A stretch of 64,000 nucleotides of DNA from a virus (taxonomy: Duplodnaviria; Heunggongvirae; Uroviricota; Caudoviricetes). Below the pieces are notes generated by a model. The model was given only the letters and a program-made list of their open reading frames with translations, did not search any database and had not been told where the DNA came from. The number at the start of each line of letters is the position of its first letter. Position 1 is the first letter of the stretch. Positions 45,207 through 61,706 of the stretch are shown here, piece by piece. Both the position numbers and the translations under genes were made by a program. The DNA lies in the IMG/VR virus record IMGVR_UViG_3300047444_000753, positions 69,256 through 133,255 of that record. One strand, 5' to 3'.

Positions 45207-46106
45207 ATGATCACCTTCAAAGCACGCACAGCATCCGGCGAGATTATCAAGTCCGCCCTCTCTCCCTTCACCTTCCCGGCAGGGGAGAAGCACCTCAAGC
45301 GCGAGGAACAGCGCGAGCTGGAACCCGTCGAGATCGCCATCATCCAGCCCGACCCCAACTCCCTGCATGACGACCTGTTCCAGCTGGCCATGTGGGCGTA
45401 CCGCCTGCTCGGGTCGGGCCACAAATCCGTCCTGCTCATTCCGTACCTCCCCGGTGCACGTGCCGACCGTGGGACCCCCTTCGGTGCCCGCGTCTACGCC
45501 CAGTTCATCGGCGAGATGTGGATTGACCAGATCATCTGCTACGACCCGCACTCCGGCACCATCGTTGAGGAGCTGAAGCTCTGGGTACATGATGAGGCAG
45601 TTGTCACTGTCCTCCGCCCCGAAGACATCCTCAACACCCAGAACTCCAAGCTCGTCATGCCCAACATCTACGACGGCATCATCGCCCCGGACAAGGGTGC
45701 CCACGACCGGGCTCACGGGGTTGCACAGGCCTTCGGGCTCCCGCTGTACACCGCCGAGAAGACCCGCGACTTCGAGACCGGCAAGCTTTCCGGCTTCAAC
45801 ATCGACCTGCCCGGTACCGGACATTTCCTGATAGTGGATGATATCTGCGACGGCGGCGGTACCTTCCTTGGATTGGCCGGAGTGGTTCCGAAGGCGGTCT
45901 ACCTTGACCTCTATGTCTCCCACGGCGTCTTCTCCAAGGACGCCCTGTACAACCTCAAGCAGGGATTCGTCAACATCTTCACGACCAACTCCTATGCCCC
46001 CACCCGCGTGCTGAATGATCACGGCGACTTCGGGGACCCGGATGCTGTTGACAAGTTCCACCGGATCGACATCATCCGTCCCATGCTGGACCGCATCTCG
46101 GTTTGA
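45207..46106 (+). CDS. ribose-phosphate pyrophosphokinase-family protein (probable Adps of NARP1)
   Basis: FTFPAGE, PYLPGARADR, DPHS, IIAPDKGA, KTRD, IVDDICDGGGTF, YVSHGVFS; leaderless after TGGACA-N17-TATACT. Confidence 0.85.
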   Translation: MITFKARTASGEIIKSALSPFTFPAGEKHLKREEQRELEPVEIAIIQPDPNSLHDDLFQLAMWAYRLLGSGHKSVLLIPYLPGARADRGTPFGARVYAQFIGEMWIDQIICYDPHSGTIVEELKLWVHDEAVVTVLRPEDILNTQNSKLVMPNIYDGIIAPDKGAHDRAHGVAQAFGLPLYTAEKTRDFETGKLSGFNIDLPGTGHFLIVDDICDGGGTFLGLAGVVPKAVYLDLYVSHGVFSKDALYNLKQGFVNIFTTNSYAPTRVLNDHGDFGDPDAVDKFHRIDIIRPMLDRISV

Positions 46107-46167
46107 CAAAACCAAGATACATAGATACCTTTATATCAACGACGTACCGACAACCAGAAAGAGACTA

Positions 46168-47700
46168 ATGCTTCTCATTAACCCGCTTCTCAATACAGAT
46201 TCTTACAAGTTGAGTCACCGAATCATGTACCCGGAGGGTCTGGAATTTGTCCAGTCCAACTACACCAACCGCAAGTCCCGCGTCGAGGGCATCAACCATG
46301 TCGTCCAGTTCGGACTGCAGGCGTGGCTGAAGGACCTGCAGGAAGACTACGAGCGCTTCTTCGCCGCCGACAAGGCCACCGTGGTTCAGGAATACAAGGA
46401 CGCCACATCCACCTTCGTCTCCCCCGGCTTCAGTCTTGAGATGGTCGAAGACCTCCACGACCTCGGCTACCTGCCCCTGCGCTTCTCCGCAGTCCCGGAA
46501 GGCACGCTCGTGCCGATCGGTGTCCCGTCCGTACTGATCGAGTCCACCCACAAGGACTTCGCATGGCTTGTCAACTACGTCGAGTCCGATCTCTCCGCTG
46601 GCATCTGGCACCCGTCCACTGTCGCGACCATTGCTTGGTCCCTGCGCCGGGTCTTCGAGAAGGCCGCTAAGGAAACGGGCGGAGCAATGGAGGCCGTTGA
46701 CTTCCAGCTGCACGACTTCTCCTACCGTGGACAGGTCAACCGCGAGGCCGCAATGTCTTCCGGTGCCGCGCACCTGCTTTCCTTCTACGGCTCCGACGCC
46801 GTCCCGGCTGTGCAGTGGGTCAACTACTACTACCCGGGTGAGGACAACGGCCTGATCGCCGCCTCCGTCCCTGCCACCGAGCACTCCGTCATGTGCGCCG
46901 GAGGCAAGGAGGACGAGATCGAGACCTTCCGCCGCCTGCTCAAGACCTTCCCGACCGGCATCCTGTCCATCGTGGCCGACACGTGGGACCTGTTCAAGGT
47001 CCTCACCGAATACTTGCCGCTCCTCAAGGACGAGATCATGGCCCGCGACGGCAAGCTCGTCATCCGCCCGGACTCCGGCGATCCGGTAGACATCATCTGC
47101 GGAACCTCGCAGTACTCCATTGCCACTAATGACGACAAGTTCAAGCACATCTTCTACCCTGACCAGACAACCCCGGAAGGGAAGGGGGCCATGGAACTTC
47201 TGTGGGACACCTTCGGTGGCACTGTCAACGAGGCGGGTTACCGGGAACTGGACCCCCACATCGGCCTGATCTATGGCGACGGCATGTTCAAGGCACGCAT
47301 CGAGGACATCAACTCCCGCCTGAAGGCCAAGGGCTTCACCTCCATCGTCTGGGTGGCTGGCATCGGCTCTTGGGCCTACCAGATGCTCACCCGAGATACC
47401 TTCGGCTCCGCTGTCAAGGCTACCTACGTCATCGTCAACGGCGAAGGCCGGAACATCTTCAAGGATCCGAAGACCGACGACGGCACCAAGAAGTCCGCCA
47501 CGGGCAAGTTGGCAGTCGGCTACACGGGTGACGGCACGCTGTACCGCATCGAAAAGGCCAACGAGGAGCAGATCGCCCGCAGCCTCATCCAGCCTGTCTG
47601 GGAGAACGGCAAGTTCCTGAAGGAATACGCCTACTCCGAGGTCCGCGCCAACCTCAAGCGCTGGACCGGAATCCTCGAACGGAATGGTGGAATCGCGTAA
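46168..47700 (+). CDS. nicotinamide phosphoribosyltransferase-family protein (probable Namat of NARP1)
   Basis: LNTDSYKLSH, LHDFSYRG, VPATEHSVM, SIVADTWD, VIRPDSGDP, LIYGDG, TRDTFGSAVKA, KDPKTDDGTKKSATG. Confidence 0.9.
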   Translation: MLLINPLLNTDSYKLSHRIMYPEGLEFVQSNYTNRKSRVEGINHVVQFGLQAWLKDLQEDYERFFAADKATVVQEYKDATSTFVSPGFSLEMVEDLHDLGYLPLRFSAVPEGTLVPIGVPSVLIESTHKDFAWLVNYVESDLSAGIWHPSTVATIAWSLRRVFEKAAKETGGAMEAVDFQLHDFSYRGQVNREAAMSSGAAHLLSFYGSDAVPAVQWVNYYYPGEDNGLIAASVPATEHSVMCAGGKEDEIETFRRLLKTFPTGILSIVADTWDLFKVLTEYLPLLKDEIMARDGKLVIRPDSGDPVDIICGTSQYSIATNDDKFKHIFYPDQTTPEGKGAMELLWDTFGGTVNEAGYRELDPHIGLIYGDGMFKARIEDINSRLKAKGFTSIVWVAGIGSWAYQMLTRDTFGSAVKATYVIVNGEGRNIFKDPKTDDGTKKSATGKLAVGYTGDGTLYRIEKANEEQIARSLIQPVWENGKFLKEYAYSEVRANLKRWTGILERNGGIA

Positions 47701-48500
47701 TGAATATCACAGGTAATGTCGTGCTCGCCGGGGACTGGCACGGAAACGCTCCACAGGCCCTGAATGTGATCGACTACGCTATCCGCGAGGATATCAAGAC
47801 CATCATTCAGGTGGGTGACTTCGGCATCTGGCAGGATGACAAGCCCTACCTGAACAAGATGCAGAAGCGTCTGGGGGATCACGACATCACCCTGTACTTC
47901 ATTGATGGGAACCACGAGGACTTCCCGCGCCTCTACGACAAGAGGATCCTAGAGGACGGCACCCGCAAGGTCCGCACCAACATCTTCCATCTGCCTCGCG
48001 GCTTCCGCTTCACGTGGGAGGGCTACACGGTCCTCGCGCTAGGCGGGGCCGCGTCCATCGACAAGCCCTTCCGGCGTGAGGGCAGGAGCTGGTGGCCGGA
48101 GGAGCTGATCACCGAGGAGGATGTACAAGCGTCCATCAAAGGCGGTAAGGTAGACATCCTCCTCTCCCACGACAGCCCGAACACGGCACCCAACTCGATC
48201 ACAGATGACCCCCACGGCCAGCGAAACGCTGCAAGATTTTTCGGCTCCGACATGGTGGAGATGTGTAACGACCACCGAAAACAACTTCAGCGCGTCACCG
48301 ACGCTGTCACCCCGCGTTTGATCTTCCACGGCCACTACCACATGGCCATGTCGGGACTCTTCCGACACGAGGACGCGGACAAGACCCCCGCCCGAGTCTA
48401 CGGACTCGATCAGGGCACCGGGAGCCTTCCAAGGCACACGGTCACCCTGAGGGCCGACTGGGTCGCTGAAGAGTTGTCAACCCTTGACAACATACATTAA
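47700..48500 (+). CDS. calcineurin-like metallophosphoesterase
   Basis: GDWHG, VGDFG, DGNHE, LSHDSP, HGHYH motifs. Confidence 0.9.
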   Translation: MNITGNVVLAGDWHGNAPQALNVIDYAIREDIKTIIQVGDFGIWQDDKPYLNKMQKRLGDHDITLYFIDGNHEDFPRLYDKRILEDGTRKVRTNIFHLPRGFRFTWEGYTVLALGGAASIDKPFRREGRSWWPEELITEEDVQASIKGGKVDILLSHDSPNTAPNSITDDPHGQRNAARFFGSDMVEMCNDHRKQLQRVTDAVTPRLIFHGHYHMAMSGLFRHEDADKTPARVYGLDQGTGSLPRHTVTLRADWVAEELSTLDNIH

Positions 48501-49942: not shown

Positions 49943-51640
49943 ATGCCTTTTTTCACACGCGCCAACGAGCCTTCGCCTGAAGAGAACAATCCTTTTGGTG
50001 CCGCACCCTACAACACCCCGCGACCGCTGACTGCCAGCGCCGCCCGTGTTGACCTCAAGAGCGGCAAAGAGCTCGAAGCCGTGGCCAGACGACGTCAGGT
50101 GGGGAGGTGGCAGACCGATGCATGGGAATACTATGACCTCATCGGAGAACTCAAGTTCGCTGCCACCATCCTCGCCAACGTCCTCTCCCGTGTCAACATT
50201 TACCCTGCATACATTGCAGACTCCTCGCAGGTTCCCGCCCGCGTAGCCGTCATCGACCACCTCGATGACGACTTCAAGGAGAAGGCTTCCTCCCTCCTGT
50301 ACCTGCTTGAGACCGGAAACGGCGGGACTGCAGGCCTGCTCCGCTCCGCTGCCCTGAACCTCTTCGTCGCCGGAGAGTGCTACCTTGTGCGCGAGCCCGC
50401 CAAGTGGTCCACCGGGGAACCGGAGAAGTACCAGATCCGCTCGATCGATGAGATCGTGGCCACCCCCTCTCAGCGCAAGAAGGCTCGCGGCAACGCCGCC
50501 CCCAAGAGCGGATGGTCTATCAAGCCCAGCCGTGACGCCACACAGGACGAGTACATCGAGATTCCGGAGAACGGCTACATCGCCCGTCTCTGGCGTCCGC
50601 ACCCCCGCTTCTCCGATGAGGCGGAATCCTCGGTCAAGGGCGTGCTGGATCTTTGTGATGAACTATTGCTTCTGGCCCGCACGGCTTCTGCCGCTGCCAA
50701 GTCCCGCCTGAGCTCCGGCGTATTCTTCGTACCGGATGGTCTTTCCTACGCAGCTGGCTCCGACGCCGACATGACCGATCCCGATGATCCGAACGCAGTC
50801 TCCACCGATGATCAGGATGATTTCGAGGAACAGCTCATCGACGCCATGGTCACACCGATCTCGGACCCATCCAGCGCCTCCGCCGTCGTGCCTCTCTTGG
50901 TCCGTGGCCCGGAGGAACTGGGCGCAAAGATGTTGCACCTCAGCTTCGCCCGCTCGTGGGACGTCAACCTCGCTAAGCACATGGACACGGTCCTGAACCG
51001 TATCATCTCCGGCATCGATCTGCCTAAGGAAATCGTCGGCGGTATGGCGAACCTCAAGGGTGCCAACGCCAAGATCGTTGAAGAGACCATGTACTCCTCT
51101 CACATCGAGCCGATGATCCTCATGCTTTGTGACATGCTCACCGTCGCCTTCCTGCGTCCGGCTCTGCGTGCCATGGGCTTCGAGGAGCAGCACATCATGC
51201 GTACGGTCATCTGGTATGACCCGTCCGCTGTCACGGCCAAGCCGTCCAAGTCTGAATCCGCCACCCTTGGATTTGACAAGCAGATCATTTCTGCGGATGC
51301 TTGGCGTCGTGCCCACGGCTTCTCGATCTCGGATGCACCGACCCAGCTGGAAATCGCACAGCGTCTCGCGGTCGCCAAGGGCCTCATCTCCGAGCCGCTT
51401 GCCGAAAAGCTCATCTCCACCCTGATCCCGGACCTGATGGCCGATCTCCGCAAGGAACAGCTCCAGCAGTCCGATCCAAACTCCGCAGCGGCGCTGAACG
51501 ACGCTCTGAGTGGTGATACACCACCCGTTCCGGACGCCTCTCCAGCCGGTGACACGCCTGCCGAACCGGCAGCCGATGCCCCCGCATCTGGTACAATAGA
51601 CACTAGTACACCGCCTCCTTCAACGCTACTGGAGCCATAA
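49943..51640 (+). CDS. portal protein
   Basis: WQTDAWEYYDLIGELKFAATILANVLSRVNIY, LWRPHPRFSDEAESSV, GIDLPKEIV; size and position at start of head genes. Confidence 0.85.
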   Translation: MPFFTRANEPSPEENNPFGAAPYNTPRPLTASAARVDLKSGKELEAVARRRQVGRWQTDAWEYYDLIGELKFAATILANVLSRVNIYPAYIADSSQVPARVAVIDHLDDDFKEKASSLLYLLETGNGGTAGLLRSAALNLFVAGECYLVREPAKWSTGEPEKYQIRSIDEIVATPSQRKKARGNAAPKSGWSIKPSRDATQDEYIEIPENGYIARLWRPHPRFSDEAESSVKGVLDLCDELLLLARTASAAAKSRLSSGVFFVPDGLSYAAGSDADMTDPDDPNAVSTDDQDDFEEQLIDAMVTPISDPSSASAVVPLLVRGPEELGAKMLHLSFARSWDVNLAKHMDTVLNRIISGIDLPKEIVGGMANLKGANAKIVEETMYSSHIEPMILMLCDMLTVAFLRPALRAMGFEEQHIMRTVIWYDPSAVTAKPSKSESATLGFDKQIISADAWRRAHGFSISDAPTQLEIAQRLAVAKGLISEPLAEKLISTLIPDLMADLRKEQLQQSDPNSAAALNDALSGDTPPVPDASPAGDTPAEPAADAPASGTIDTSTPPPSTLLEP

Positions 51641-51643
51641 AAT

Positions 51644-54600
51644 ATGTTTGATCGCAGCGCCGCAGTAAAGCTCCAGCTACGAGATGCCAAAGGCCGATTC
51701 ATCAAGATGGGTTCCCACGTAAAGTGGACATCCCTCTCCAGTGGCAATGATGTTTCCGGCATCGTGCGCGGCGAAGACGGCAACAACGTCATCATCGAAT
51801 TCCAGCATGGCGGAAAGCCGTACACTATCCATGTTCCGCACACCAAGCTCAATGTCATCAACGAGAAGGCATCGCTTGACTCTGCGTACGTGCAGAAGAT
51901 GGGCGGACACGTTGACACCCCGAACGTCAACGACCCCGGCGTAACCCCCGGACACGCACCCAGTGCCCCCGCTGCACCGTCCAGCCCGGGTACACAGGGT
52001 GGCCTGATCAAGAACTTCGCCACGTTCAACACCAACGAGACCACCTATAAGGTTGGCTCCGCTGACGGCGAAAAGATTATGACCCCGGTCTCCGACCTCA
52101 AGCTCGGCGATCAGGTCTTCCCTGTCGCCAAGGCCAGTACGTTCCAGAAGAGCCCCTACAATGCCAAGGGCAATGGGTCCAACACCCTCATCCAGAAGTT
52201 CGGTCCCGGCGTCGGAACCGTCACCAAGATCGACCCTAAGGGCAACTGGGTAGTCATTACAGATGACTCCAAGCCACCCAAGACCTACGCGATCTCCAGC
52301 GGTCACTTTGTCTTCAAGCGTGATGCCAACACCGAGCGGGCCGTCCTCAACGCCCAGAAGATGGAAGCCTCCACCATCTACGCTGGCAAGACTCCGCCGT
52401 CCCTCCCGTGGATCGACGGGCTCAAGACACCCAACGCACCCGAGACTCCGGCCCCCAACGTTCCGGCTGAGCCGAACATGCCAATTTCCGACCACGTCGG
52501 TGTCTCCGACATGCCTGTTGGGTCCCGCATCCCGCTCGGCGGCGAACAGGGCTTCGCCACAAAGACCGGCGACAACAAGTGGGTCAACGAGAAGACCGGC
52601 ACCCAGTTTGACGACAAGTCCGCAGAATACATCCTGAAGACTCCGACCCCGGAGAAGACAGCCGCCGACCCGAACCAGCACGTCGGCCCTGCCCACGCGG
52701 ACCAAGTTGCCAAGGACAAGGCGAGCACCGTGGAGAACCCGCTGGGGGACAACTTCAGCGAGCTCCCACCGATGACCTCCTACCAGAAGGGTGACGTTGC
52801 CCTCCTCAAGGACGGCACCCTCGCACCATGGATCGGCAAGGGCCAGATCACCCTCGAAGACGGCTCCAAGGTCATGGGCAACAAGTTTGCCGTTGACGGC
52901 GTCGGCAAGGGTGTGGCCGGTAAGGACATCGCCAAGTCCTACCGTCCGAAGAGCTTTGTCATCCACTCCCCAAGCGAGAGCCCGTTCGGCCCTGACGCCC
53001 ACGGCTACAGCTTCGATCTCTCCAAGCCCAACAACGAGAACTTCAAGGCCGGAGACCTCGTTGTCTACGGCAAGGAGAACAATCAGGGCAAGATCTTCTC
53101 CGTCAACCCTACGAACATCCTTGTCGAGAAGATGAACTCCGACAAGACCGTCCACGGCACAGCCACCATCGTCGCCGGTCAGGTCCACGGAAAGTACATC
53201 AAGGATAAGTCCTCCTCTGCTGTATCTGCACCGGACAGCAAGCTGGATTCGATCAGCCCCGCCGAGGATCTTACCCCTGCCGAAGAGCAGAAGATCGCGG
53301 ACAGTACGGCACAGAAGCTTGCCGACTTCGCCGAGAGCGTAGACTTCACGGTCTACCCTGCTGGCACATCTTTCTGGGCCAAGGACGGCAACCCGCTGGT
53401 TTCCGCTGCGCTCGAAAAGATGGGCGTGGCCAAGAACAAGCCGACCCTCGTTTCGGATGAGGAATTCGCCAAGCTCAGGGATGAGGGCCACCACGTCATC
53501 TACCGTGGAATCAGTGGCGCAGTTCAGGGCACTACTGCAGAGCAGGCCCAGCAGGACATCATCTCCTCCGACTCTCCGAAGATCGGCAACGGTCTCTACG
53601 GCGGCGGCACATACTTCACAAACAACCCCGATGCTGCCGCGCACTACGGCCACAGCAACGGTGCAGTCTCCACCTACGCCCTGACACCTGACGCCAAGAT
53701 GGTCACGATGGATGACATCGAAAAGATCAGGGACGACATCAAGGCCGAGCTCGGCGACAAGATGACGCCCAAGGTGTCGGCTGCGCTGGATGATGTCGGT
53801 TTTGTCGCAGTGATGTCGGGATTCGATGGCATCTTTGTGCCCGGGGGGAACGGCAACGACAACGGTGCCACGAACTTCTACACCATGCTCAACCGTGGGA
53901 CCATGGCACACACCGAGAACAACATCGTCCCCACCGATAAGTTCACCTTCAAGAATACAGATATGCCATGGGGCAACAAGAAGGAGACGGCCTTCGGCAA
54001 GGCTGTGCCTACCGGCAACCCGGCCCTGAAGAACCCCGAGGCCGCTCCGGCAGAACCGAACGCGCCGAAGCCTCAAGGCAAGGCACCAGCCTTCAAGCAG
54101 ACCCCTGCAGCCCCCGCTGAGGCACCCGCAGAGCCTTCGGCACCTGCCACACCCGACGCACCTGCTGAGCCTGCTATAGCCCCAGAGCCAGCGGCTGAGG
54201 CACCAAAGGCTGATGAGGCCACACCGACCTTCCCAGACAAGGGCAAGACCGGCACGGACAGCGCCGGAAACACCGTCAAGGTCAACGACCAGATCGTCCA
54301 CCCCAAGAAGGGTAAGGGAACGGTCGCCATCGTGCTGCCGTCCACGGACTCGGTCAAGGCGTACTACCCGGACGGCACTTACGCGGTCCACAAGCAGCAC
54401 ACCATCACCAAGGTGGATGCTGAAAAGTCTGCCGCCCCGTCGTCCCTCCCGTCCAACATGGCGGTTGGCGACTCGGGCATGGACCCCGCGACCCACACCA
54501 AGTTCATGGTGGGCAAGAACAACTCCATGCTCCACATCGGTGATAAGGTTACCCACAGTAATGGGGATACCGGAACCATCACCGCCATCTACACAGGGGA

Positions 54601-57600
54601 GAAGAACAAGACCGCCAGTGTCCTGTGGAGCGACGGCACAAAGTCCACCAAGAAGGCATCCGTCCTAGAGTCCGAGCACAAGCTGCCCGACGCTTCCGGA
54701 AACGCTCCGGAGGCCTCCAAGGCGGGCGAAGCTCCCGCCGAATCTGCCGGAAGCCCCGAGGGGAAGACGCTCTCCGAATTTGGCAAGGACAAGCTCTCCC
54801 AGCTTCCGGTCGGAACTGAGCTCAAGCACGACGGCTCTAACATCACCATACGCAAAATGGGTGAAGACCAGTGGCACGCGTTCTACAACGGACAGAAGAT
54901 GGAGAACGCTCCGGAGCTGTCCAATGATGACTTCAAGGGATTCCCGGACGCCAAGGCCGACAAGTACGCCATCTCGCTGCCAAGTGCAGCAGATGCGTCC
55001 GCTGCGGCACCAGTAGCCAAGCCGGATGCAGTGCCATACACACCTGCCCACGAGAAGGCACTGGTTGACTTCAAGGCCAACCAGATCGCCATCGGACAGC
55101 ACCTGCGTGGCAACGGTGAGGGTTCCACGGAGAACGCCGGACCTATCATCTACGCCATGGATGACCTGCTCAAGGACTCCACCCTCAAGGAAGCCGCCAC
55201 TGTCTGGCGCGGCTTCACCTACAAGGATTCAATCGATCCGCACGCCACGAAGCTCGGGGACACCTTCGCCCCCGGCGTCATCTTCCGTGACAAGTCGTTC
55301 ATCTCCACCTCCCATGACCAGAACGTCGCCCTCCAGTCCATGGAGAACGAGGATGGTCACAAGGTCCTCGTCAAGTTCGACCTGCCTGCCGGATACCACG
55401 CACACGATGTCAACTACGACGGTATCTCCGACGAGGCAATCAAGGGCCAGAGCCACGAGCAGGAAATGCTCCTGCCCCGCAACATGGACTTCATCATCAC
55501 GGGCGTGGACAAGGGTACGGATGTCAACGGCAACCCCATCACCCACCTGTCCGTCACTGGCGTGCTCATGGATCCTGCGGACGGCCAGATCAGCAAGGGC
55601 ATGGTCGAGGTCAACCCCGACACTGGTGTTGCCGACAAGCCGTTCCAGATCCTCGCGGACTCCGGAGCTGACGGCGACGGCTACCACCCTAGCGGCTCTT
55701 GGGGCCTCTTCGGTGCCGCAGGTGTCATGGTTGAAGCCAACGACCCGAACACGGGCGAAAAGCGATACCTTATCGTAGAAAACGGTGCGCTTCACGAGAA
55801 GAAGAATCAGGGTCTCTGGCAGCTTCCGGGCGGTGCCCTCAACGGGTCCGAAAACGCCTACCAAGGCGCTGCCCGCGAGATGCACGAAGAGCTGGATGTC
55901 CACCCGGACACCCTTGCCAACTTCTCCCACGCCGGAGACGTGGTCTACTCCAACCAGCAAGAGGGTGCCAAGGAGTGGAAGTACACCAACATTGCTGCCG
56001 TCCACGACGGGCCGACCTTCGATGTAAAGATCGACGTCATCGAGACCTCCGACCACAAGTGGGTCACCGCTGATGAACTGAAGCAGATGGGTGCTGACGG
56101 TAAGCTCCTGCCTGCCTTCGCGGCCAACGTAGACAAGCTTCTGGATGTCTACGGGAAGAACAACGGTACCGACACCAAGACGCTGGACATCAAGAACTTC
56201 GAAAAGGTCTCCGGCCCAATGGGCTCCAACTCCGGTGGCACATACACCGATAAGGCCACGGGCGAGAAGTACTACATCAAGTTCGGCATGTCAGAGGACC
56301 ATGCCCACAACGAGATTCTGGCCTCGAAGATCTATCAGGCCATGGGCGTCAATTCGTCGCACCAAGAGCCCGTCAATATGGGCAACGGCAAGCTTGGCAT
56401 CGCATCCAAGATCATTGAATCCGATGACAGCCACACCTTCTCCAACCTTGAGAACCCCGAGTACCTGAAGAAGATTCAGGACGACTTCGCTGTAGATGCC
56501 CTGCTCGCCAACTGGGACGTCGCAGGCATGGGCTATGACAACATCATCACCGATAAGAACGGTGACCCGGTTCGTGTCGATCCCGGCGCAGCACTGCGCT
56601 ACCGCGCACAGGGATCCCCGAAGTCCAAGTTCGACGGCACCGCCGATGAGTGGGACTTCCTGCGCGACGGGTCCAACCACGAGTCCTCTGGCCTGATCTA
56701 CAACAAGAAGCTGTTCGGCTCCATGAGCAACCAGCAGCTGATCGACTCCGCTGACAAGCTCAACGGGTTGACAGATGACAAGATCGATAGTATCGTAGAC
56801 TCTGTAGGGTTTGATAAAAAGGACAGCGAGTTCTTCAAGCAGACCCTGAAGGAACGCCGAGATGATATTCTCAAGCGTGCCTCACTACTAAACGACCCAA
56901 CAAAGAAGGATGACAATGGACAACATCAAGAAGGATCCGGAGACTCCGGACACAACGACGCCAAAGCTGGATCCGAAGAGGGCCAGCCTGTACAGCTGGA
57001 CTCCGGATCAGGTGCAGATCATGGTGCCGCCCAAGCCGGAGAAATAGCCCCGAAGGTCGGGGACCAGCTTACTCTCAAGCAGCTCGACAAACTTCCTACG
57101 GGAAGTGTTGTCCAGTACGGAGAGAGTGGTGCGCCTCTCGAACTGACCAAGAACGGCGACTGGGAGCTCCCGGACGGCAAGGTACTGGAATACGACTATG
57201 TCCGGGACCTCTACGACGACGGCGACCTCACCCTCACGCACTTCCCGTCTGCCCCGCAGGCCGGGAAGCTTGCAGTCGGCGACAAGATCAAGGGTGCCGA
57301 CATCCGCCAGCTCCCTGTCGGCTCCAAGCTGTCACAGGGTTCGATGCACTATGTCAAAAAAGAAGACGGTACTTGGAGCCAGAACGGCACCTCCGTCAAG
57401 ATCAATAACCAGCAGCTGGCTGATTTCTATGACAACGGTCTGAACCTTGACGCAATCGGGGCTCCTACCGAGGAGTCACCTGCTGCCGCTGCGGGCCACA
57501 AGGTCGGGGATCAGGTTGGCAGCATGGATACCCCTGACCTGCCAGTGGGCACCAAGATCAAGAGCAAGTACGGATCCGAGTACACCAAGAAGGCCGCTAA

Positions 57601-60600
57601 CCACTGGGTCTCCAAGACCGGGATGGAGTATAGCGACCACGACTTCTCCGACGATCCCGACTACGTCGTTGACTCCCTTCCCGCGATGGCCACCACTACA
57701 GGTGACAACGGTCTTGCTGCTGGCGACATCATCGACATGCAGAAGCTTGATAAGCTGCCTATCGGCGGTGTCATCGAAACTTCTAACGGCCTGAAATTCA
57801 CCAAGGACACAGAAAATTACTGGTCATCCAACGGAGTATCAGGGTGGGCTACCAGCAGCCTCTCGCATGCCAACAAGGGCGAATCCGCTGTCAAGGTCAT
57901 CAGCGTCCCTGACACAGCCAGCTCCGCCCCCGGATCTGATCCGATGGTCGGAAAGAGGCTGGGATCAGACGGCGTACCCAAGGCTGCGGATCTACCAGTA
58001 GGTACCGTAATCAAGGGAGAGTCCTCCACATATACCAAGATGGCCGATGGTGCAGGTAATGGCACTGGTATGTGGAAGAACGACTCAGGAAACCTTGTAC
58101 ACGAGGGCACACTCGATTACTGGGCAGAAGGCGGTAACTCCAATTTGGAGATTACCTCGATGGGATCTGCAAATGGTGTGGCAGATAGTGGTCCTAAGGT
58201 TGCCAAGTTCAGCGACCTCAACTCTTACGCGCCCGGAACTGTGCTCAGCCCGGGTGGCAGCGCCAAGCTCATCAAGCAGGCGGACGGTGGCTGGAAGTCT
58301 ACCTTCAGCGGCTCAGTATTCTCTACTCAGCAGGTGAAGGATAGCTACAATGAGGGTGACCTTACCATTGACTCTACACCTGACCACAAGGTTGGTGATA
58401 GCGTCTCTAGCGCTAACCTTGGGACACTTCCGGTAGGTACTGAGCTAGAGAATGGGTCCGGGGTCCTGTTGAGCAAGACAGCACACGACGAATGGACTTC
58501 TGAGTTCGGAACACCATACAGCGACAGTGAGCTGCAGGGTGCGCAGTCCAGCTACAAGATTTCTACCGTTGCGGAGGCTCAGGCTCCGGGTCAGGCTGAA
58601 GAGGATCCTATCGGACCTGAAGCTGCTTCATCGACTCCGTCAGTTCCGGGAAAGAACGGCGAAGCCATCAGCGTGGGCGACAACATTATCTGGCAGACAA
58701 AGGGTACCCCCGGCGTTGTAGCGGACATCAATGTTGAATCTGGTAAGGTCCAGATGCAGTTTGAGGATGGGACCAAGAAGTGGTACCAGTCTTCCAAGAT
58801 GGTCAAGCAGGCCGTAACTGCTCCGGCATATCAGGCCCCCGTTATCAAGAAGAAGGAGGCTGACCCGTCAAGCCCGCTCTATGGCCAGCCTAAGCCTGAG
58901 ATGCCTAAGGAGCTCGACGCTCCACAGGCCGAGACCTTCCTGCCTGATGGATTCATCGAGGAGATCGAGCAGCGCTATGCCGCAAAGATCAACCCTTCGT
59001 GGTCCAAGAGCTCCCCACAGGAGTCTTTCTACTGGTCAAAGGTTACCGAGTTCCAGAATACTGGGGATCTCTCAGCACTGAAGACGCTTCATGAGAAGAA
59101 GTACATCAGTGATGCGATGTTCATCAAGGCTGAGGACCGCATTGATGAATTTGCCAAGAAGAAGAAAGCTTTGGACGCTGAAAAAGCCAAGGCAGCCTCT
59201 GACTACGCGATTCAGCTAAAGGCATGGAACGATGCCAACGGTATCTCCACTACATCCGGATTCGAGGACCACTTCCCGGAACCGGCAACTGCAGCCGATG
59301 AATGGACCAAGGAAAACGGGTTTGTCACTATGCCCGATGGTTCAGTCATTGCTGACTGGTCCAAGGCAACAGAGGGAAGCCACTCGGTAGCCTCCATCCT
59401 CGACTCCATGGGCAAGGATGATGCGCTGGCGGGCCACGGAATGTCCGCCATGGTTGACTCGGACTGGATCCGAGACAACAATGTCCGCTTCACCAAAGTC
59501 GTGGACGATAACGGTGTGGCCAGACTACAGGCTCGTTTTGAAGTGTCCGAGTTCCACAAGAAGGATGTCGTCGCGAACATGGGGACAGCGGACAGCTACG
59601 GATTCCAAGCAGGGTTCTTCGGCAAGGCGTCCAACAAGCTGTTCAGCATCTTCTCAAAGAAGACCAAGGGATTCGATAATGTTAGTGGCAAGACCTACGA
59701 TAAGAAGGTTGGAAACACTGACATCAAGTTCCAGTCAGCACAGTCTGGTGGCGCGGGTAATAACCGAAGTGCTCTTTCGGCAGCTGCATACATCACTCTT
59801 CCGGAAAACGGAACCATACAGGATTTCGAAGCAGCTTTGAAGTCCATGGGTATTACTGATGCTCACCCGTCCCCGAAGGAGTCTGTGGACTTCAGTAAGA
59901 AGAAGCAGCTTGTCTCAACCTTCAAGGGATTTGTTGGTGAGGGTAATACAATGTACGAGCAGAATCCGGCTCTTCTTGATACCCACGTCAATAGTGTCTT
60001 GGCTGATCTTGGATACAACATTGAAGATTTCAAGCTTCTCCACACCGAGCTTGGCTTCTACCAGTACCGGGTACCAAGCAAGCTTCGTGACAAGCTGGCT
60101 GCAGAGAGTGGCGTCAAAGCCTACTCCCACGGCAACATCGACTTCCTCAATGAGACCCACCACAGCAAGTATGAGTATGCTGAGGATGGCACCAAGGTAA
60201 GCAGCCTCAATAAGTGGAAGTTCGACCCGAACAGCCCGCTACGTTCCGTTGCCCGTTTCGCTGGGGCTGCCAAGGGATACCTTTCCACAGGCCGTCGTAT
60301 CCAAGAGGGCGACAACTCGGTCGGAATGTCGCCGGACGCGGACATCCGCTCCGGAGGTGCCCGCTACCTCTTCACTACACCAAGGAAGAATAGCGGCTGG
60401 ATCCACGATCTCGGATACCCTTCGGGAACTGTCCTACACCCGACCCTTGCCTACCAGTACCTAGGAAACTACGCCAACCACGAGGATAACGGTGACGGCA
60501 GCCGCTACGAGGGCAATGTGCTACATGACACACTGTCCGGGTACTTCGGCAGCAGTCCGGAGATGATGGTCCTCAATGGTGTCTCTGTCAAGGATACTTG

Positions 60601-60763
60601 GTTCTCCTTCACCAACTCCGAGCAGAAGCCGTTCCTCATCGACCAGCTACACGCTGCAGGTGTGGATGCAATCAACGGGATTCCCGTTGAGCAGTACTTC
60701 GTAATCCCCGGAGTAGACCAGATCCCTGACTGGATCGACCCGCACGCAAATGATGGACCGTGA
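51644..60763 (+). CDS. 3039-aa multidomain head-associated (polyvalent) protein: ART-like, VIP2-type ART, Nudix, kinase-like, repeats
   Basis: Continuous ORF after portal. YRG...GLYGGGTYF (about 53.5 kb); VWRG/FISTS/EQEMLL (55.2-55.5 kb); Nudix box GALNGSENAYQGAAREMHEELDV (55.8 kb); YIKF...ANWD...DN...VDPG (56.3-56.6 kb). Confidence 0.85.
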   Translation: MFDRSAAVKLQLRDAKGRFIKMGSHVKWTSLSSGNDVSGIVRGEDGNNVIIEFQHGGKPYTIHVPHTKLNVINEKASLDSAYVQKMGGHVDTPNVNDPGVTPGHAPSAPAAPSSPGTQGGLIKNFATFNTNETTYKVGSADGEKIMTPVSDLKLGDQVFPVAKASTFQKSPYNAKGNGSNTLIQKFGPGVGTVTKIDPKGNWVVITDDSKPPKTYAISSGHFVFKRDANTERAVLNAQKMEASTIYAGKTPPSLPWIDGLKTPNAPETPAPNVPAEPNMPISDHVGVSDMPVGSRIPLGGEQGFATKTGDNKWVNEKTGTQFDDKSAEYILKTPTPEKTAADPNQHVGPAHADQVAKDKASTVENPLGDNFSELPPMTSYQKGDVALLKDGTLAPWIGKGQITLEDGSKVMGNKFAVDGVGKGVAGKDIAKSYRPKSFVIHSPSESPFGPDAHGYSFDLSKPNNENFKAGDLVVYGKENNQGKIFSVNPTNILVEKMNSDKTVHGTATIVAGQVHGKYIKDKSSSAVSAPDSKLDSISPAEDLTPAEEQKIADSTAQKLADFAESVDFTVYPAGTSFWAKDGNPLVSAALEKMGVAKNKPTLVSDEEFAKLRDEGHHVIYRGISGAVQGTTAEQAQQDIISSDSPKIGNGLYGGGTYFTNNPDAAAHYGHSNGAVSTYALTPDAKMVTMDDIEKIRDDIKAELGDKMTPKVSAALDDVGFVAVMSGFDGIFVPGGNGNDNGATNFYTMLNRGTMAHTENNIVPTDKFTFKNTDMPWGNKKETAFGKAVPTGNPALKNPEAAPAEPNAPKPQGKAPAFKQTPAAPAEAPAEPSAPATPDAPAEPAIAPEPAAEAPKADEATPTFPDKGKTGTDSAGNTVKVNDQIVHPKKGKGTVAIVLPSTDSVKAYYPDGTYAVHKQHTITKVDAEKSAAPSSLPSNMAVGDSGMDPATHTKFMVGKNNSMLHIGDKVTHSNGDTGTITAIYTGEKNKTASVLWSDGTKSTKKASVLESEHKLPDASGNAPEASKAGEAPAESAGSPEGKTLSEFGKDKLSQLPVGTELKHDGSNITIRKMGEDQWHAFYNGQKMENAPELSNDDFKGFPDAKADKYAISLPSAADASAAAPVAKPDAVPYTPAHEKALVDFKANQIAIGQHLRGNGEGSTENAGPIIYAMDDLLKDSTLKEAATVWRGFTYKDSIDPHATKLGDTFAPGVIFRDKSFISTSHDQNVALQSMENEDGHKVLVKFDLPAGYHAHDVNYDGISDEAIKGQSHEQEMLLPRNMDFIITGVDKGTDVNGNPITHLSVTGVLMDPADGQISKGMVEVNPDTGVADKPFQILADSGADGDGYHPSGSWGLFGAAGVMVEANDPNTGEKRYLIVENGALHEKKNQGLWQLPGGALNGSENAYQGAAREMHEELDVHPDTLANFSHAGDVVYSNQQEGAKEWKYTNIAAVHDGPTFDVKIDVIETSDHKWVTADELKQMGADGKLLPAFAANVDKLLDVYGKNNGTDTKTLDIKNFEKVSGPMGSNSGGTYTDKATGEKYYIKFGMSEDHAHNEILASKIYQAMGVNSSHQEPVNMGNGKLGIASKIIESDDSHTFSNLENPEYLKKIQDDFAVDALLANWDVAGMGYDNIITDKNGDPVRVDPGAALRYRAQGSPKSKFDGTADEWDFLRDGSNHESSGLIYNKKLFGSMSNQQLIDSADKLNGLTDDKIDSIVDSVGFDKKDSEFFKQTLKERRDDILKRASLLNDPTKKDDNGQHQEGSGDSGHNDAKAGSEEGQPVQLDSGSGADHGAAQAGEIAPKVGDQLTLKQLDKLPTGSVVQYGESGAPLELTKNGDWELPDGKVLEYDYVRDLYDDGDLTLTHFPSAPQAGKLAVGDKIKGADIRQLPVGSKLSQGSMHYVKKEDGTWSQNGTSVKINNQQLADFYDNGLNLDAIGAPTEESPAAAAGHKVGDQVGSMDTPDLPVGTKIKSKYGSEYTKKAANHWVSKTGMEYSDHDFSDDPDYVVDSLPAMATTTGDNGLAAGDIIDMQKLDKLPIGGVIETSNGLKFTKDTENYWSSNGVSGWATSSLSHANKGESAVKVISVPDTASSAPGSDPMVGKRLGSDGVPKAADLPVGTVIKGESSTYTKMADGAGNGTGMWKNDSGNLVHEGTLDYWAEGGNSNLEITSMGSANGVADSGPKVAKFSDLNSYAPGTVLSPGGSAKLIKQADGGWKSTFSGSVFSTQQVKDSYNEGDLTIDSTPDHKVGDSVSSANLGTLPVGTELENGSGVLLSKTAHDEWTSEFGTPYSDSELQGAQSSYKISTVAEAQAPGQAEEDPIGPEAASSTPSVPGKNGEAISVGDNIIWQTKGTPGVVADINVESGKVQMQFEDGTKKWYQSSKMVKQAVTAPAYQAPVIKKKEADPSSPLYGQPKPEMPKELDAPQAETFLPDGFIEEIEQRYAAKINPSWSKSSPQESFYWSKVTEFQNTGDLSALKTLHEKKYISDAMFIKAEDRIDEFAKKKKALDAEKAKAASDYAIQLKAWNDANGISTTSGFEDHFPEPATAADEWTKENGFVTMPDGSVIADWSKATEGSHSVASILDSMGKDDALAGHGMSAMVDSDWIRDNNVRFTKVVDDNGVARLQARFEVSEFHKKDVVANMGTADSYGFQAGFFGKASNKLFSIFSKKTKGFDNVSGKTYDKKVGNTDIKFQSAQSGGAGNNRSALSAAAYITLPENGTIQDFEAALKSMGITDAHPSPKESVDFSKKKQLVSTFKGFVGEGNTMYEQNPALLDTHVNSVLADLGYNIEDFKLLHTELGFYQYRVPSKLRDKLAAESGVKAYSHGNIDFLNETHHSKYEYAEDGTKVSSLNKWKFDPNSPLRSVARFAGAAKGYLSTGRRIQEGDNSVGMSPDADIRSGGARYLFTTPRKNSGWIHDLGYPSGTVLHPTLAYQYLGNYANHEDNGDGSRYEGNVLHDTLSGYFGSSPEMMVLNGVSVKDTWFSFTNSEQKPFLIDQLHAAGVDAINGIPVEQYFVIPGVDQIPDWIDPHANDGP

Positions 60764-60776
60764 TATAGTGGATAGT

Positions 60777-61430
60777 ATGGATGATGCAAAAGATACGTTT
60801 GATGTTCTGGCAGATATCTCTCTGCCAGAGCTTCAACACACCCAAGTCAATTCTAATATAGCAGACGGACCATTTGCTGTTGAATATGGCAAAGACCTGC
60901 TCTCTTTGGGTGCACAACTCGACATCCTCCCGACCGGGATGATCTCTTTCCTCCTTGCGAACAAGATGAAGTTCATTCCGAAAGGTACTCCGGTCAGCGT
61001 AGACACTGCTCGCCAGACCATCACCTTCGGCAGCAACAAGGGCATGGTCTACCGGATCCGTCCGCTAACCACGGGTGACCAGAAGCACTTCTACCCAAAC
61101 CTCAGCTTCGCCGACCTAGACGAGTTCAAGGATTTTGTCGCGGCCAAGGCGTGGTCAATCTTGGGGGACACCTCTGATCCGACAACGTACGGACTGACCT
61201 CGGAGGACGGTAACGTTCTTGGGATTTTCCGGCAGACCAGCCAAGGATTCTTTAGGCGCGAAAAAGGACGCTGGGTCAAGCTCAACAAGGACGAGGCCAG
61301 CGACTGGGACGATGTTGACGACAAACTCTGGTCACCTGTACTTAGCGGCGCAATCGGGGTCTATGATAAGGCCATCACATCATCCGATAGCATTGCTCTT
61401 GACCTTTTCACCCCTTACATCGTCTCCTAG
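60777..61430 (+). CDS. hypothetical head-region protein
   Basis: Extended -10 TGATATAGT then ATG 60777; alternative start 60750. Confidence 0.75.
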   Translation: MDDAKDTFDVLADISLPELQHTQVNSNIADGPFAVEYGKDLLSLGAQLDILPTGMISFLLANKMKFIPKGTPVSVDTARQTITFGSNKGMVYRIRPLTTGDQKHFYPNLSFADLDEFKDFVAAKAWSILGDTSDPTTYGLTSEDGNVLGIFRQTSQGFFRREKGRWVKLNKDEASDWDDVDDKLWSPVLSGAIGVYDKAITSSDSIALDLFTPYIVS

Positions 61431-61436
61431 GAAATA

Positions 61437-61706
61437 ATGCCAGAATCCAAATCAAAAGACTCACTGTCGTTCACGTTCAGCGACGACGATCATGTGCTCG
61501 CCCTCACCCGAATCACGGATGACGGGTCCCTCTTCACACGACGAGCAGACCACTGGGTTCCCGTCACGGACAATGATCGCGGGGTCTATGATCGGACCAT
61601 GCGTGACATTTCTCCCGAACATTATAAAGATGCTCTATCACAATTTGATGCAGATCCTGCTGGTCTGACTAAGGATGATATTCTAGCATTTCTCGCTGCT
61701 GTATAG
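61437..61706 (+). CDS. hypothetical head-region protein
   Basis: AGGA RBS; FTRRADHWV similar to FRREKGRWV of previous gene. Confidence 0.75.
   Translation: MPESKSKDSLSFTFSDDDHVLALTRITDDGSLFTRRADHWVPVTDNDRGVYDRTMRDISPEHYKDALSQFDADPAGLTKDDILAFLAAV

Follow-up and report, generated by a model that had tools for sequence, protein, structure and literature searches.

A 3039-residue polyvalent protein with three ART-type domains, a Nudix hydrolase and a kinase-like domain in the head locus of a soil phage

The window (the whole stretch of 64,000 nucleotides that was analysed) comes from a soil phage and encodes a giant protein in which three ADP-ribosyltransferase (ART)-type domains, a Nudix hydrolase and a kinase-like domain are joined in one chain. 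Judged from its context, the protein is probably (roughly 0.65) a polyvalent effector that a large siphovirus of soil Actinobacteria packages in its head and injects. The polyvalent class itself has already been described; the large family to which the protein belongs, set by its conserved ends, has no name.

The giant reading frame was real and conserved. It was intact over 3039 aa (324 kDa), and five full-length relatives of 2640–3071 aa had identities of 48–64%. The protein was free of cysteine, with a pI of 5.15. The ATG of the frame follows the portal stop codon at 4 nt and is preceded by GGAG at a distance of 10 nt. The earlier note had placed here a single large head-locus frame with a list of domains, and an item-by-item check found both the frame and the list essentially correct. 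The SH3-like modules, Pro/Ala linker, R-S-ExE VIP2-type ART, intact Nudix box, PI3/4-kinase/HipA-like domain and repeats were all recovered. The features of the locus were as follows.

49943..51640, plus strand: portal gene (phrog_776, E 4.4e-90), 4-nt gap before the giant gene
51644..60763, plus strand: whole gene of the polyvalent protein, 3039 aa (open frame and five full-length relatives)
60750..61706, plus strand: two small acidic open frames of 226 and 89 aa, invariably 3' of the giant gene

The gene order was portal, giant gene, the genes for 226, 89 and 675 aa, a protease-like gene (phrog_18402/859), and the genes for the major head protein (phrog_777), major tail protein, adaptor and tape measure. 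This synteny was kept in five relatives (L087, L088, L089, L090 and L091), which bore out the head-locus context of the earlier note, and it extended to two cultured phages, Gordonia phage GodonK and Arthrobacter phage Mimi, whose portal was 52% identical. Direct adjacency of portal and giant gene was also found in L087, L088, L089, L091, Mimi and GodonK, and the placement between the portal and the protease/capsid genes was the same in every relative examined for gene order.

A late enzyme could also be co-transcribed with the head genes and act in the cytoplasm of the producing cell, never being packaged, for example by shutting off host functions or defence, or by altering components of the phage or the host ahead of lysis. 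Relatives combining kinase and ART domains in ~90-kb Pseudomonas phages are consistent with such an enzyme, since they sit among non-structural genes with no annotated structural genes adjoining, as is the lack of MuF or another recognised head anchor. This explanation is unlikely, because the giant gene lies immediately 3' of the portal gene, without exception, in translational-coupling geometry, in every relative examined, and because a head-gene context is typical of packaged effectors in the surveys covered in passages of PMC9503650. The distribution of the N-terminal module argues against it as well.

51644..52333, plus strand: Nt1 module (aa 1-230), candidate for head targeting; QLRDxxGR[WF][IV]xMG at aa 11-23, then an SH3-like barrel
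52661..53263, plus strand: Nt2 (aa 340-540), conserved beta-rich modules

Profile searches found no MuF domain in the giant protein or in the whole 158.6-kb genome, and the label "MuF-fused" in the earlier note does not apply. The place of the missing MuF is occupied by QLRDxxGRW and the SH3-like barrel, and Nt1 may have a head-targeting role. The near-invariant motif was located N-terminally in 41 family members and in Mimi gp77, with a single occurrence in each protein where chance would give 0.05. Mimi gp77 has Nt1 in the same slot with an unrelated payload, which fits the pattern of a targeting domain. Nt2 had no match in the family-profile search; its identity to close relatives was 52–88% in 50-aa windows across aa 401-500.

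Two enzyme domains passed the Pfam cut-offs.

55040..55519, plus strand: ART2 (aa 1133-1292), VIP2/Alt-type R-S-ExE ADP-ribosyltransferase (PF03496, ADPrib_exo_Tox, E 2.6e-11; phrog_3895)
55760..56098, plus strand: Nudix hydrolase domain (aa 1373-1485) (PF00293, E 9.4e-10; phrog_1198)

The catalytic residues of ART2 (R1189, S1221-T-S1223 and E1272-x-E1274) were invariant in six relatives. The Nudix box G1397..E1403..R1411-E1412..E1415-E1416 was also invariant, and Asp replaced only the final Gly of the box. No NCBIfam equivalog model came near its cut-off, so a substrate could not be assigned, and the earlier statement that the Nudix domain "trims or recycles ADPR" is conjecture. The earlier note had gone on to unite the ARTs, the Nudix domain and an upstream NARP1 pair in one closed phage NAD/ADPR cycle. 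Adps-like and Namat-like genes (phrog_619, phrog_448) do lie 4 kb upstream and keep their synteny with the giant gene in relatives. However, NARP1 adjacency does not track an NAD-using payload, because Mimi keeps the order NARP1-portal-giant with a giant protein that carries no ART, Nudix or kinase. NARP1 uses up free ADPR, which an ADPR pyrophosphatase would destroy (PMC13586617), and a Nudix enzyme does not free ADPR from ART-made ADP-ribose on macromolecules. With no equivalog in support of a Nudix substrate either, the cycle is not supported and is very improbable.

The kinase-like domain follows the Nudix domain.

56171..56893, plus strand: atypical kinase-like domain (aa 1510-1750), HipA/CtkA/PI3-4K-like (conserved motifs, language-model and profile matches)

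K1546, E1557 and D1625 were invariant, and N1623, D1632-N1633 and D1646 were kept in at least 90% of the sequences. Language-model matches were LepB_N, PI3_PI4_kinase, HipA_2 and actin-fragmin kinase; no Pfam kinase model matched. The best PDB match of the domain profile (112 sequences) was CtkA (3akj) at a marginal E of 0.025, over three collinear segments that included the catalytic loop. The domain was found in 279 IMG/VR contigs and nearly always sat inside proteins of more than 1000 aa. The results supported assignment of aa 1510-1750 as a putative atypical kinase with all phosphotransfer motifs kept, at a marginal E-value.

The first ART-like domain was of a different standing.

53366..54013, plus strand: ART1 (aa 575-790), PARP/ART-PolyVal-like variant (language-model and sub-threshold PARP matches)

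ART1 showed YRG, with its Arg, in strand 1 and a GxGxY(F) strand (YRG...GNGLYGGGTYF). Its language-model match was PF18760 (ART-PolyVal), at 0.92 with 183 shared features, and 21 of the 23 sub-threshold PDB matches were PARP catalytic domains, aligned on the GxGxYF strand. HMM searches gave no significant Pfam or PDB match, and the ART-PolyVal HMM did not match. The strand-1 position held by His in PARP/ART-PolyVal domains is Arg in ART1, and a conserved catalytic acid was sought but none was identifiable. The resemblance claimed in the earlier note thus stood at aa 575-790, but the identity as an enzyme did not; ADP-ribosyltransferase activity of ART1 is only a lead, with catalysis predicted at most. 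ART1 was missing from the five closest relatives, the region aa 522-834 was 66% identical to P0027, and homologues were present in GodonK gp67 and L071-L074. ART1 is a cassette of recent acquisition.

The enzyme domains are separated by barrels, linkers and repeats.

54041..54238, plus strand: Pro/Ala-rich acidic linker (aa 800-865), pI 4.27
54257..54673, plus strand: two SH3/Tudor/KOW-like small beta-barrels (aa 872-1010) (shared profile; weak CarD_TRCF_RID and PcrA_UvrD_tudor matches)
54788..54904, plus strand: extra degenerate 72-aa repeat (aa 1049-1087), within an insertion unique to the giant protein
57050..58594, plus strand: seven tandem ~72-aa repeats (aa 1803-2317), motif vGD...LPvGt...y.K...g.W
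58646..58819, plus strand: third SH3-like barrel (aa 2335-2392), same profile as the other two copies

One profile matched the three barrels (aa 872-923, 957-1006 and 2335-2392; E 1e-12 to 1e-24). Across the family, the barrels matched only small beta-barrel families (CarD_TRCF_RID, PcrA/UvrD Tudor, KOW and SH3), all below cut-off. A second degenerate copy of the repeat was located at aa 288-326. The number of significant copies varied from 4 to 11 in the five closest relatives, against seven here. These spacer-like repeats and the long Pro/Ala linkers, together with the very large size, the absence of cysteine and a locus position typical of minor head proteins, are consistent with a mainly structural or ejection protein, likened to internal-core proteins, that would form an internal head or ejectosome part for DNA delivery or assembly, with the enzymes secondary. 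Conservation pointed the other way. Within the family, conservation was highest at residues of catalytic type in the ART and kinase folds, not in structural repeats, and the repeats and linkers were the least conserved stretches against close relatives. Family-profile searches detected no transmembrane or peptidoglycan-cleaving domain. A chiefly structural role is thus doubtful, somewhat more so than an unpackaged late enzyme.

The C-terminal region contained the family-defining part.

58841..59323, plus strand: CtA (aa 2400-2560), conserved helical region with one long helix (confident helices in the predicted model)
59321..60073, plus strand: CtB (aa 2560-2810), alpha/beta domain and helical connector
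60077..60724, plus strand: CtC (aa 2812-3027), DarT-like ART fold, family-defining

CtA was present in 43 of 156 sequences, and CtB had no confident structural relative. CtC was a third ART fold and came nearest to DarT; its H-Y-E triad was near-invariant: H2829 (109/110), Y2908 (95 Y and 8 F) and E2973 (109/110). R2885, S2896, D2900 and D2948 were further invariant residues. From motif position and predicted strands, the triad and R2885 may be equated with the DarT residues. The C-terminal domain with SPDADIRSGGARYLFT, which the earlier note had left unassigned, was present, but it is an ART fold and the most conserved part of the protein.

The family comprised about 380 clusters at E<=1e-3. 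CtB-CtC was constant on the C-terminal side, lying at most 42 aa from the end of the chain in 93 of 117 proteins. The kinase-like domain was usually kept as well, and the QLRDxxGRW/SH3 module at the N-terminus often; between these constants, cassettes such as ART, Nudix and helicase were shuffled.

As a packaged effector, the giant protein would be made late with the head proteins, enter the prohead, probably targeted to it or to the portal by the N-terminal module rather than by MuF, and be delivered with the DNA into the next host. The repeats and Pro/Ala linkers may act as spacers for packing or threading the 324-kDa chain. The enzyme domains would then alter host macromolecules as soon as infection begins. 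After ejection, ART2 may ADP-ribosylate host proteins, as does T4 Alt, and the kinase may phosphorylate them. The Nudix domain would remove a substrate of nucleotide type, whether ADPR, an RNA cap or a signalling nucleotide, and the DarT-like CtC may ADP-ribosylate a target, protein or nucleic acid, whose identity the sequence does not reveal. No virion proteomics for Mimi, GodonK or DSL-LC01 was found in the literature. The packaged-effector reading of the earlier note fits the published class as presented in passages of PMC5512222 and PMC9503650; packaging and injection we infer.

Polyvalent proteins, including head-packaged ART, Nudix and kinase domains, are a published class (passages of Iyer et al. 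2017, PMC5512222, and Iyer et al. 2022, PMC9503650). As in those passages, the giant chain joins ART, kinase and Nudix effector domains, is encoded beside head genes in a portal-terminase phage, is predicted to be packaged and injected, and has shuffled domains. It differs in lacking MuF and the hallmark domains described there, and the DarT-like C-terminal module and the QLRDxxGRW module were not found in those passages. The polyvalent kinase in the passages of PMC5512222, from Verrucomicrobia/Bacteroidetes elements, is a Ser/Thr/Tyr kinase in truncated form whose catalytic pair is His-Asp, whereas the present domain resembles HipA/CtkA and has an NWD loop.

ART2 shares with T4 Alt and MuF-fused Alt/VIP2 ARTs the R-S-ExE ADPrib_exo_Tox type and a gene among head genes. 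T4 Alt, of 682 aa, has a single enzyme and is targeted by way of the T4 scaffolding core, whereas here a chain of 3039 aa that lacks MuF combines the ART with other enzyme-type domains, at least five in all. Experimental precedent for an ART that is packed in the head and injected comes from T4 Alt, as cited in passages of PMC5512222 and PMC9503650.

CtC was only 8–10% identical to DarT of the DarTG toxin (PDB 8baq, 7omv, 7omu, 7yk3; PMC11543638), with no sequence-level match, and PF14487 did not match CtC. Unlike DarT, CtC ends a giant phage protein behind the conserved ~250-aa CtB domain, has the additional invariant S2896, D2900 and D2948, and belongs to a gene with no adjoining DarG or NADAR antitoxin. 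In its profile match to CtkA (H. pylori), the kinase-like domain was collinear over the strand with the ATP-binding Lys, the helix with the alphaC Glu, and the catalytic loop (FavDAwLaNWD in the profile, FVADTLLGNFD in CtkA), and its language-model neighbours lie in the HipA/CtkA and PI3/4-kinase-like (LepB_N) fold class; it differs in forming its own large phage-specific family, and the E of 0.025 is marginal.

Three phage proteins annotated as 'hypothetical protein' or 'DNA helicase' lie at or shortly after the portal. Mimi gp77 (MN234211.2) shares the portal slot, Nt1, SH3-like modules and one repeat, but its payload is a UvrD-type helicase. Gordonia phage GodonK gp67 (MK620899.1) has the portal slot, kinase-like domain and ART1, but not the C-terminal module. 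The 3289-aa protein of Actinomycetia phage DSL-LC01 (OQ999401.1), a metagenome assembly (PMC10611076), shares the portal slot, the kinase-like domain and CtB-CtC.

The source record of the window is 158.6 kb long, with an estimated completeness of 91%. The frame at window 51644–60763 (+) ran for 3039 codons without a stop. It started 4 nt past the stop codon of the portal gene (phrog_776, E 4.4e-90), with GGAG 10 nt 5' of its ATG, and encoded an acidic product of 324 kDa (pI 5.15) without cysteine. Five full-length metagenomic relatives of 2640–3071 aa showed 48–64% identity to this product; therefore, the giant gene is real and under selection. A nucleotide search of GenBank phages with the portal–giant region gave no match, and a promoter/terminator scan gave nothing above chance.

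The giant gene was preceded by genes for an Adps-like protein (phrog_619), a Namat/NAMPT-like protein (phrog_448), a metallophosphoesterase, an HTH protein, a DUF1360 protein, and the portal. It was followed by two small acidic ORFs, a 675-aa ORF, and the genes of a protease-like protein (phrog_18402/859), the major head protein (phrog_777), and the major tail protein, and then by those of a head–tail adaptor, a tape measure, and a Dit protein. This downstream series of head and tail genes indicated that the phage is a large siphovirus, with the giant gene within the head-morphogenesis block. The gene order was identical in all relatives with a contig read (contigs L087, L088, L089, L090, and L091). 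The two small ORFs (226 aa and 89 aa, each with pI 4.5; window 60750–61706) came after the giant gene in all relatives and had no family matches; they may act as partners of the giant protein, as chaperones or inhibitors. Between window 54000 and 62000, G+C inside the giant gene fell from 0.61 (54–56 kb) to 0.53 (58–62 kb), which fits a mosaic origin of its 5' and 3' parts.

Parts of the giant protein (window 51644–60763, + strand)
aa 1–230: N-terminal module (Nt1)
aa 575–790: probable ART fold (ART1)
aa 872–923, 957–1006, and 2335–2392: SH3-like barrels, located with the module profile
aa 1133–1292: VIP2-Alt-type ART domain (ART2)
aa 1373–1485: Nudix domain
aa 1510–1750: kinase-like domain
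aa 1803–2317: seven repeats of ~72 aa
aa 2400–2560: C-terminal part CtA
aa 2560–2810: C-terminal part CtB
aa 2812–3027: C-terminal part CtC, predicted DarT-like ART fold

Iyer et al. 2017 describe polyvalent proteins of phages and conjugative elements as single chains in which 2–15 effector-type domains are fused. The giant protein combines ART2, Nudix, a kinase-like domain, the CtC ART fold, and ART1 with adaptor modules, and its gene lies among the virion and packaging genes of a portal–terminase phage, between the portal gene and the protease and major head protein genes. Proteins of this class have been read as late-made and head-packaged, entering the host with the DNA and modifying host targets (PMC5512222; PMC9503650). 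The best-supported reading of the giant protein is that of a head-packaged effector which would enter the host with the DNA and modify host targets. Its anatomy, its conserved catalytic-type residues, and its invariant position in the head module are direct observations of this study; packaging, injection, and all substrates we infer.

ART2 and Nudix were the domains recognized by curated models. ADPrib_exo_Tox (PF03496) matched aa 1133–1292 (E 2.6e-11, 43.7 bits against a Pfam cut-off of 23.4), and NUDIX (PF00293) matched aa 1373–1485 (E 9.4e-10, 39.1 bits against 21.1); PHROGs agreed with Pfam on both. The R-S-ExE residues of ART2 (R1189, S1221-T1222-S1223, and E1272-Q-E1274) were invariant in a six-sequence alignment, so that both the HMM score above the gathering threshold and the Arg, S-T-S, and E-x-E motifs of VIP2-Alt R-S-E ARTs were found. 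The Nudix box (GX5EX7REUXEEXGU) was present and invariant in the six sequences at G1397, E1403, R1411-E1412, and E1415-E1416, with the last G replaced by D. Among NCBIfam equivalogs the best Nudix matches were generic and far under their cut-offs (33 bits against 200), and PADLOC returned a generic Nudix match and nothing else.

The kinase-like domain is the most widely shared portion of the giant protein among GenBank phages. No curated model matched it; Pfam kinase models were absent from the giant protein and the LepB_N HMM had no match in the genome. A word-indexed homologue search returned 3 proteins. In a 112-sequence alignment, K1546 (YYIK), E1557, and D1625 (NWD) were invariant, and N1623, D1632-N1633, and D1646 (DPG) were kept in at least 90% of the sequences. 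They correspond, by prediction, to the ATP-binding Lys, helix Glu, catalytic loop (Asp...Asn), and metal-binding Asp of HipA/CtkA-like kinases. The top match of the 112-sequence profile in the whole PDB was the HipA-like Ser/Thr kinase CtkA (3akj, E 0.025; E 0.71 with a smaller 59-sequence profile), aligned in three collinear segments which included the Lys strand and the catalytic loop. Language-model neighbours had LepB_N, PI3_PI4_kinase, HipA_2, and actin-fragmin-kinase domains. Single-sequence PDB searches with the kinase, ART1, and C-terminal regions gave nothing meaningful. The assignment of aa 1510–1750 as an atypical kinase-like domain of the HipA/CtkA/PI3-4K class, based on sequence comparison, is well supported but not proven. 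The domain was found in 279 IMG/VR contigs, nearly always within ORFs of more than 1000 aa. It also occurred in a 1213-aa protein of Pseudomonas phage Jeremy annotated 'ADP-ribosyltransferase' (locus L086, PV565041.1 86311–89952), of a type present in ~90-kb phages of Pseudomonas, Yersinia, Aeromonas, Morganella, and Escherichia. At the one locus examined, that of Jeremy, the gene lay distant from annotated structural genes, two genes upstream of a 'nucleotide phosphatase'.

Among 1.84 billion representative proteins, a profile of aa 2400–3039 matched 380 clusters (E ≤ 1e-3). Most of these proteins were 2000–7000 aa long, and the module ended no more than 42 aa from the C-terminus in 93 of 117 proteins. 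The AlphaFold model of aa 2560–3039, built from a 110-sequence alignment, had pLDDT 89.9 and pTM 0.91; an earlier fold of aa 2400–3039 from a 6-row alignment had pLDDT 52 and was kept out of structural searches. Foldseek with the pLDDT 89.9 model found nothing at E ≤ 1e-3 in PDB and BFVD. Exhaustive VIA-align of the CtB–CtC model against 48,161 PDB representatives clearly found DarT. A DarT cluster was also matched in the ESM Atlas (TM 0.61 by target over 150 aligned residues, rmsd 3.1), and two DarT entries in AFDB (probability 0.99 and 0.87) ranked after nine uncharacterised family members.

H2829, which ends the predicted strand AYSHG, and E2973, which begins the predicted strand EMMVL, were each kept in 109 of 110 sequences; position 2908 (Y2908 in GGARYLF) was Y in 95 and F in 8; R2885, S2896, D2900, D2948, and G2952 were invariant. 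DarT2 has an H-Y-E motif with Y71, catalytic R51, and E160 (PMC11543638). The Arg-to-Tyr spacing is 23 residues in CtC and 20 in DarT2. In the predicted model, CtC has an ART fold nearest to DarT, an H-Y-E-type site, and a putative catalytic Arg. The PF14487 (DarT) HMM had no match in the genome at E ≤ 10, and the 110-sequence C-terminal profile found no DarT in the PDB; the likeness is structural, without a sequence-level relation.

DarT ADP-ribosylates ssDNA bases and is partnered with a DarG or NADAR antitoxin. No macro or NADAR gene adjoined the giant gene, and the NADAR HMM was negative across the genome. A stand-alone Macro ORF of 177 aa (PF01661, E 1.2e-6, above cut-off; locus L092, genome G000:C1:50434-50805) lay ~19 kb before the window start and ~70 kb upstream of the giant-gene start. 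In a phage with three ART-type domains, its product could be a partner that removes ADP-ribose or a means of self-protection. We consider it unlikely that CtC is a nucleic-acid ADP-ribosyltransferase carried in the phage head; such an enzyme would modify host DNA or RNA at infection and halt host replication or expression, with the co-conserved kinase-like domain as partner in a two-enzyme takeover core and the phage Macro protein protecting the phage.

The earlier note had placed ART-like motifs at the first ART region, and these were present at aa 575–790. By language model, ART1 resembled ART-PolyVal clusters (0.92, 183 of 256 features in common), and the ten best named matches were concordant. 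A five-sequence ART1 profile gave 23 sub-threshold PDB matches (E 0.9–2.8), 21 of which were PARP catalytic domains, with the alignment on the GxGxYF strand. At E ≤ 10 the PF18760 (ART-PolyVal) HMM matched neither the giant protein nor any other part of the genome; GodonK, DSL-LC01, and two IMG/VR records were likewise negative at E ≤ 1. A word-indexed homologue search with ART1 gave nothing. ART-PolyVal (Tox-ART-HYD2 clade) is an H-Y-D family with H on strand 1, Y on strand 2, and D on strand 5 (PMC5512222). ART1 kept the Tyr of GxGxY, had an invariant Arg (YRG) in place of the His on strand 1, and showed no identified conserved acidic residue in the five-sequence alignment. It thus lacks both the HMM match and the H-Y-D active site of ART-PolyVal. 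With Arg at strand 1 and no conserved acid, the ART fold of ART1 is probable, and an enzymatic activity is at most putative.

ART1 was missing from the five closest relatives, yet window 53207–54145 (aa 522–834) was 66% identical to aa 658–967 of the distant family protein P0027, the C-terminal modules of the pair being only 26% identical. This distribution indicates a recent recombinational transfer of the ART1 cassette. A related copy was found in GodonK gp67 (E 4e-13). Such cassette exchange shows that the giant family evolves as polymorphic toxins do.

Among the adaptor modules, the seven ~72-aa repeats matched their own profile at E 1e-18 to 1e-30; two degenerate copies lay outside this array, and the five closest relatives had 4–11 significant copies. 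The SH3-like module occurred 223 times in 83 family proteins. Its weak matches, all small beta-barrels below cut-off, were CarD/TRCF-RID, PcrA/UvrD Tudor, KOW, SH3, and ribosomal L24/L2. The CarD/TRCF-RID and PcrA/UvrD Tudor names suggest RNA-polymerase binding as a lead only, because the scores were below cut-off and the profile matches many unrelated small barrels.

MuF-fused effectors carry an SPP1 gp7-like head-anchoring domain. No such domain was found here: PF04233 went unmatched throughout the genome at E ≤ 10, and neither Pfam nor PHROG MuF was found in the giant protein. Its N-terminus carries a near-invariant peptide, QLRDxxGR[WF][IV]xMG (aa 8–24, window 51665–51715), followed by another barrel. 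The peptide was common to 41 giant family members and Mimi gp77, which has a helicase payload, and was present in a single copy in each protein, where chance would give 0.05; no description of it was found. It looks like a portable targeting signal. The N-terminal module is the sole part shared with Mimi gp77 in the same slot, which makes it the simplest candidate for head targeting. Modelling the complex of Nt1 and the portal monomer gave 'no answer' (score 0.00), which is evidence neither way, and a language-model search with Nt1 gave no usable match. If Nt1 is a portable head-targeting signal, the loading of unrelated payloads such as the Mimi helicase would be explained.

Own domain HMMs were run over 156 collected family proteins. 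CtC was found in 150 of them, CtB in 132, the kinase-like domain in 95, Nt1 in 53, the ART2 type in 47, and Nudix in 35. Between Nt1 and the C-terminal module, the enzyme cassettes were free in order and copy number. The closest cultured relative was Arthrobacter phage Mimi, which was collinear (Namat-like 74%, portal 52%, and Adps-like 51% identical); its gp77 consists of Nt1, SH3 modules, a repeat, and a UvrD helicase. In Gordonia phage GodonK, the 1479-aa gene directly after the portal gene (gp67) encodes a kinase-like domain and ART1, without the C-terminal module. In the metagenome-assembled phage DSL-LC01, a 3289-aa gene three genes past the portal gene encodes a kinase-like domain and CtB–CtC. 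Across actinophages, then, the position after the portal gene is occupied by a modular polyvalent protein. The family is very large, with ~380 clusters at 50% identity, and its conserved core can now be stated: an N-terminal QLRDxxGRW/SH3 part, a HipA/CtkA-like kinase domain, and a C-terminal DarT-like H-Y-E ART.

The NARP1-like pair upstream of the giant gene is real. A closed NAD/ADPR cycle of this pair with the giant protein, proposed in the earlier note, was not borne out: the linkage persists in Mimi, whose giant protein has no NAD-using domain, and adjacency is therefore lineage synteny, not functional coupling. NARP1 makes ADPR-PP from free ADPR and ATP (PMC13586617). The Nudix domain, if an ADPRase, would rival NARP1 for free ADPR, and the Macro ORF is a more conventional "eraser" candidate. 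A calcineurin-type metallophosphoesterase follows the Adps-like/Namat-like pair in one gene run (window 45207–48500), kept in the relatives' contigs L087 and L088. It was ruled out as the published NARP1-AP phosphatase, since that enzyme, Adpp of extended NARP1 operons, is a Macro domain of a different fold; it would be a different accessory enzyme, if functionally linked at all.

Polyvalent head-packaged effectors have been predicted from genomics. The only experimental tests found concerned single-domain cases, T4 Alt among them, and no virion proteomics or injection data were found for relatives. GodonK gp67, Mimi gp77, and Forza/Boopy-type Gordonia phages are cultured family representatives in the SEA-PHAGES collection, and K1546, D1625, H2829, R2885, and E2973 are supplied as concrete target residues.

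Four features had no description in the papers searched: the CtB and DarT-like module that marks the family, the coupling of this module to a HipA/CtkA-like kinase domain, an N-terminal QLRDxxGRW module replacing MuF, and three ART-type domains from different clades in one chain. The class of the giant protein is already known; the DarT-like fold has so far been characterised mainly as a bacterial anti-phage toxin.
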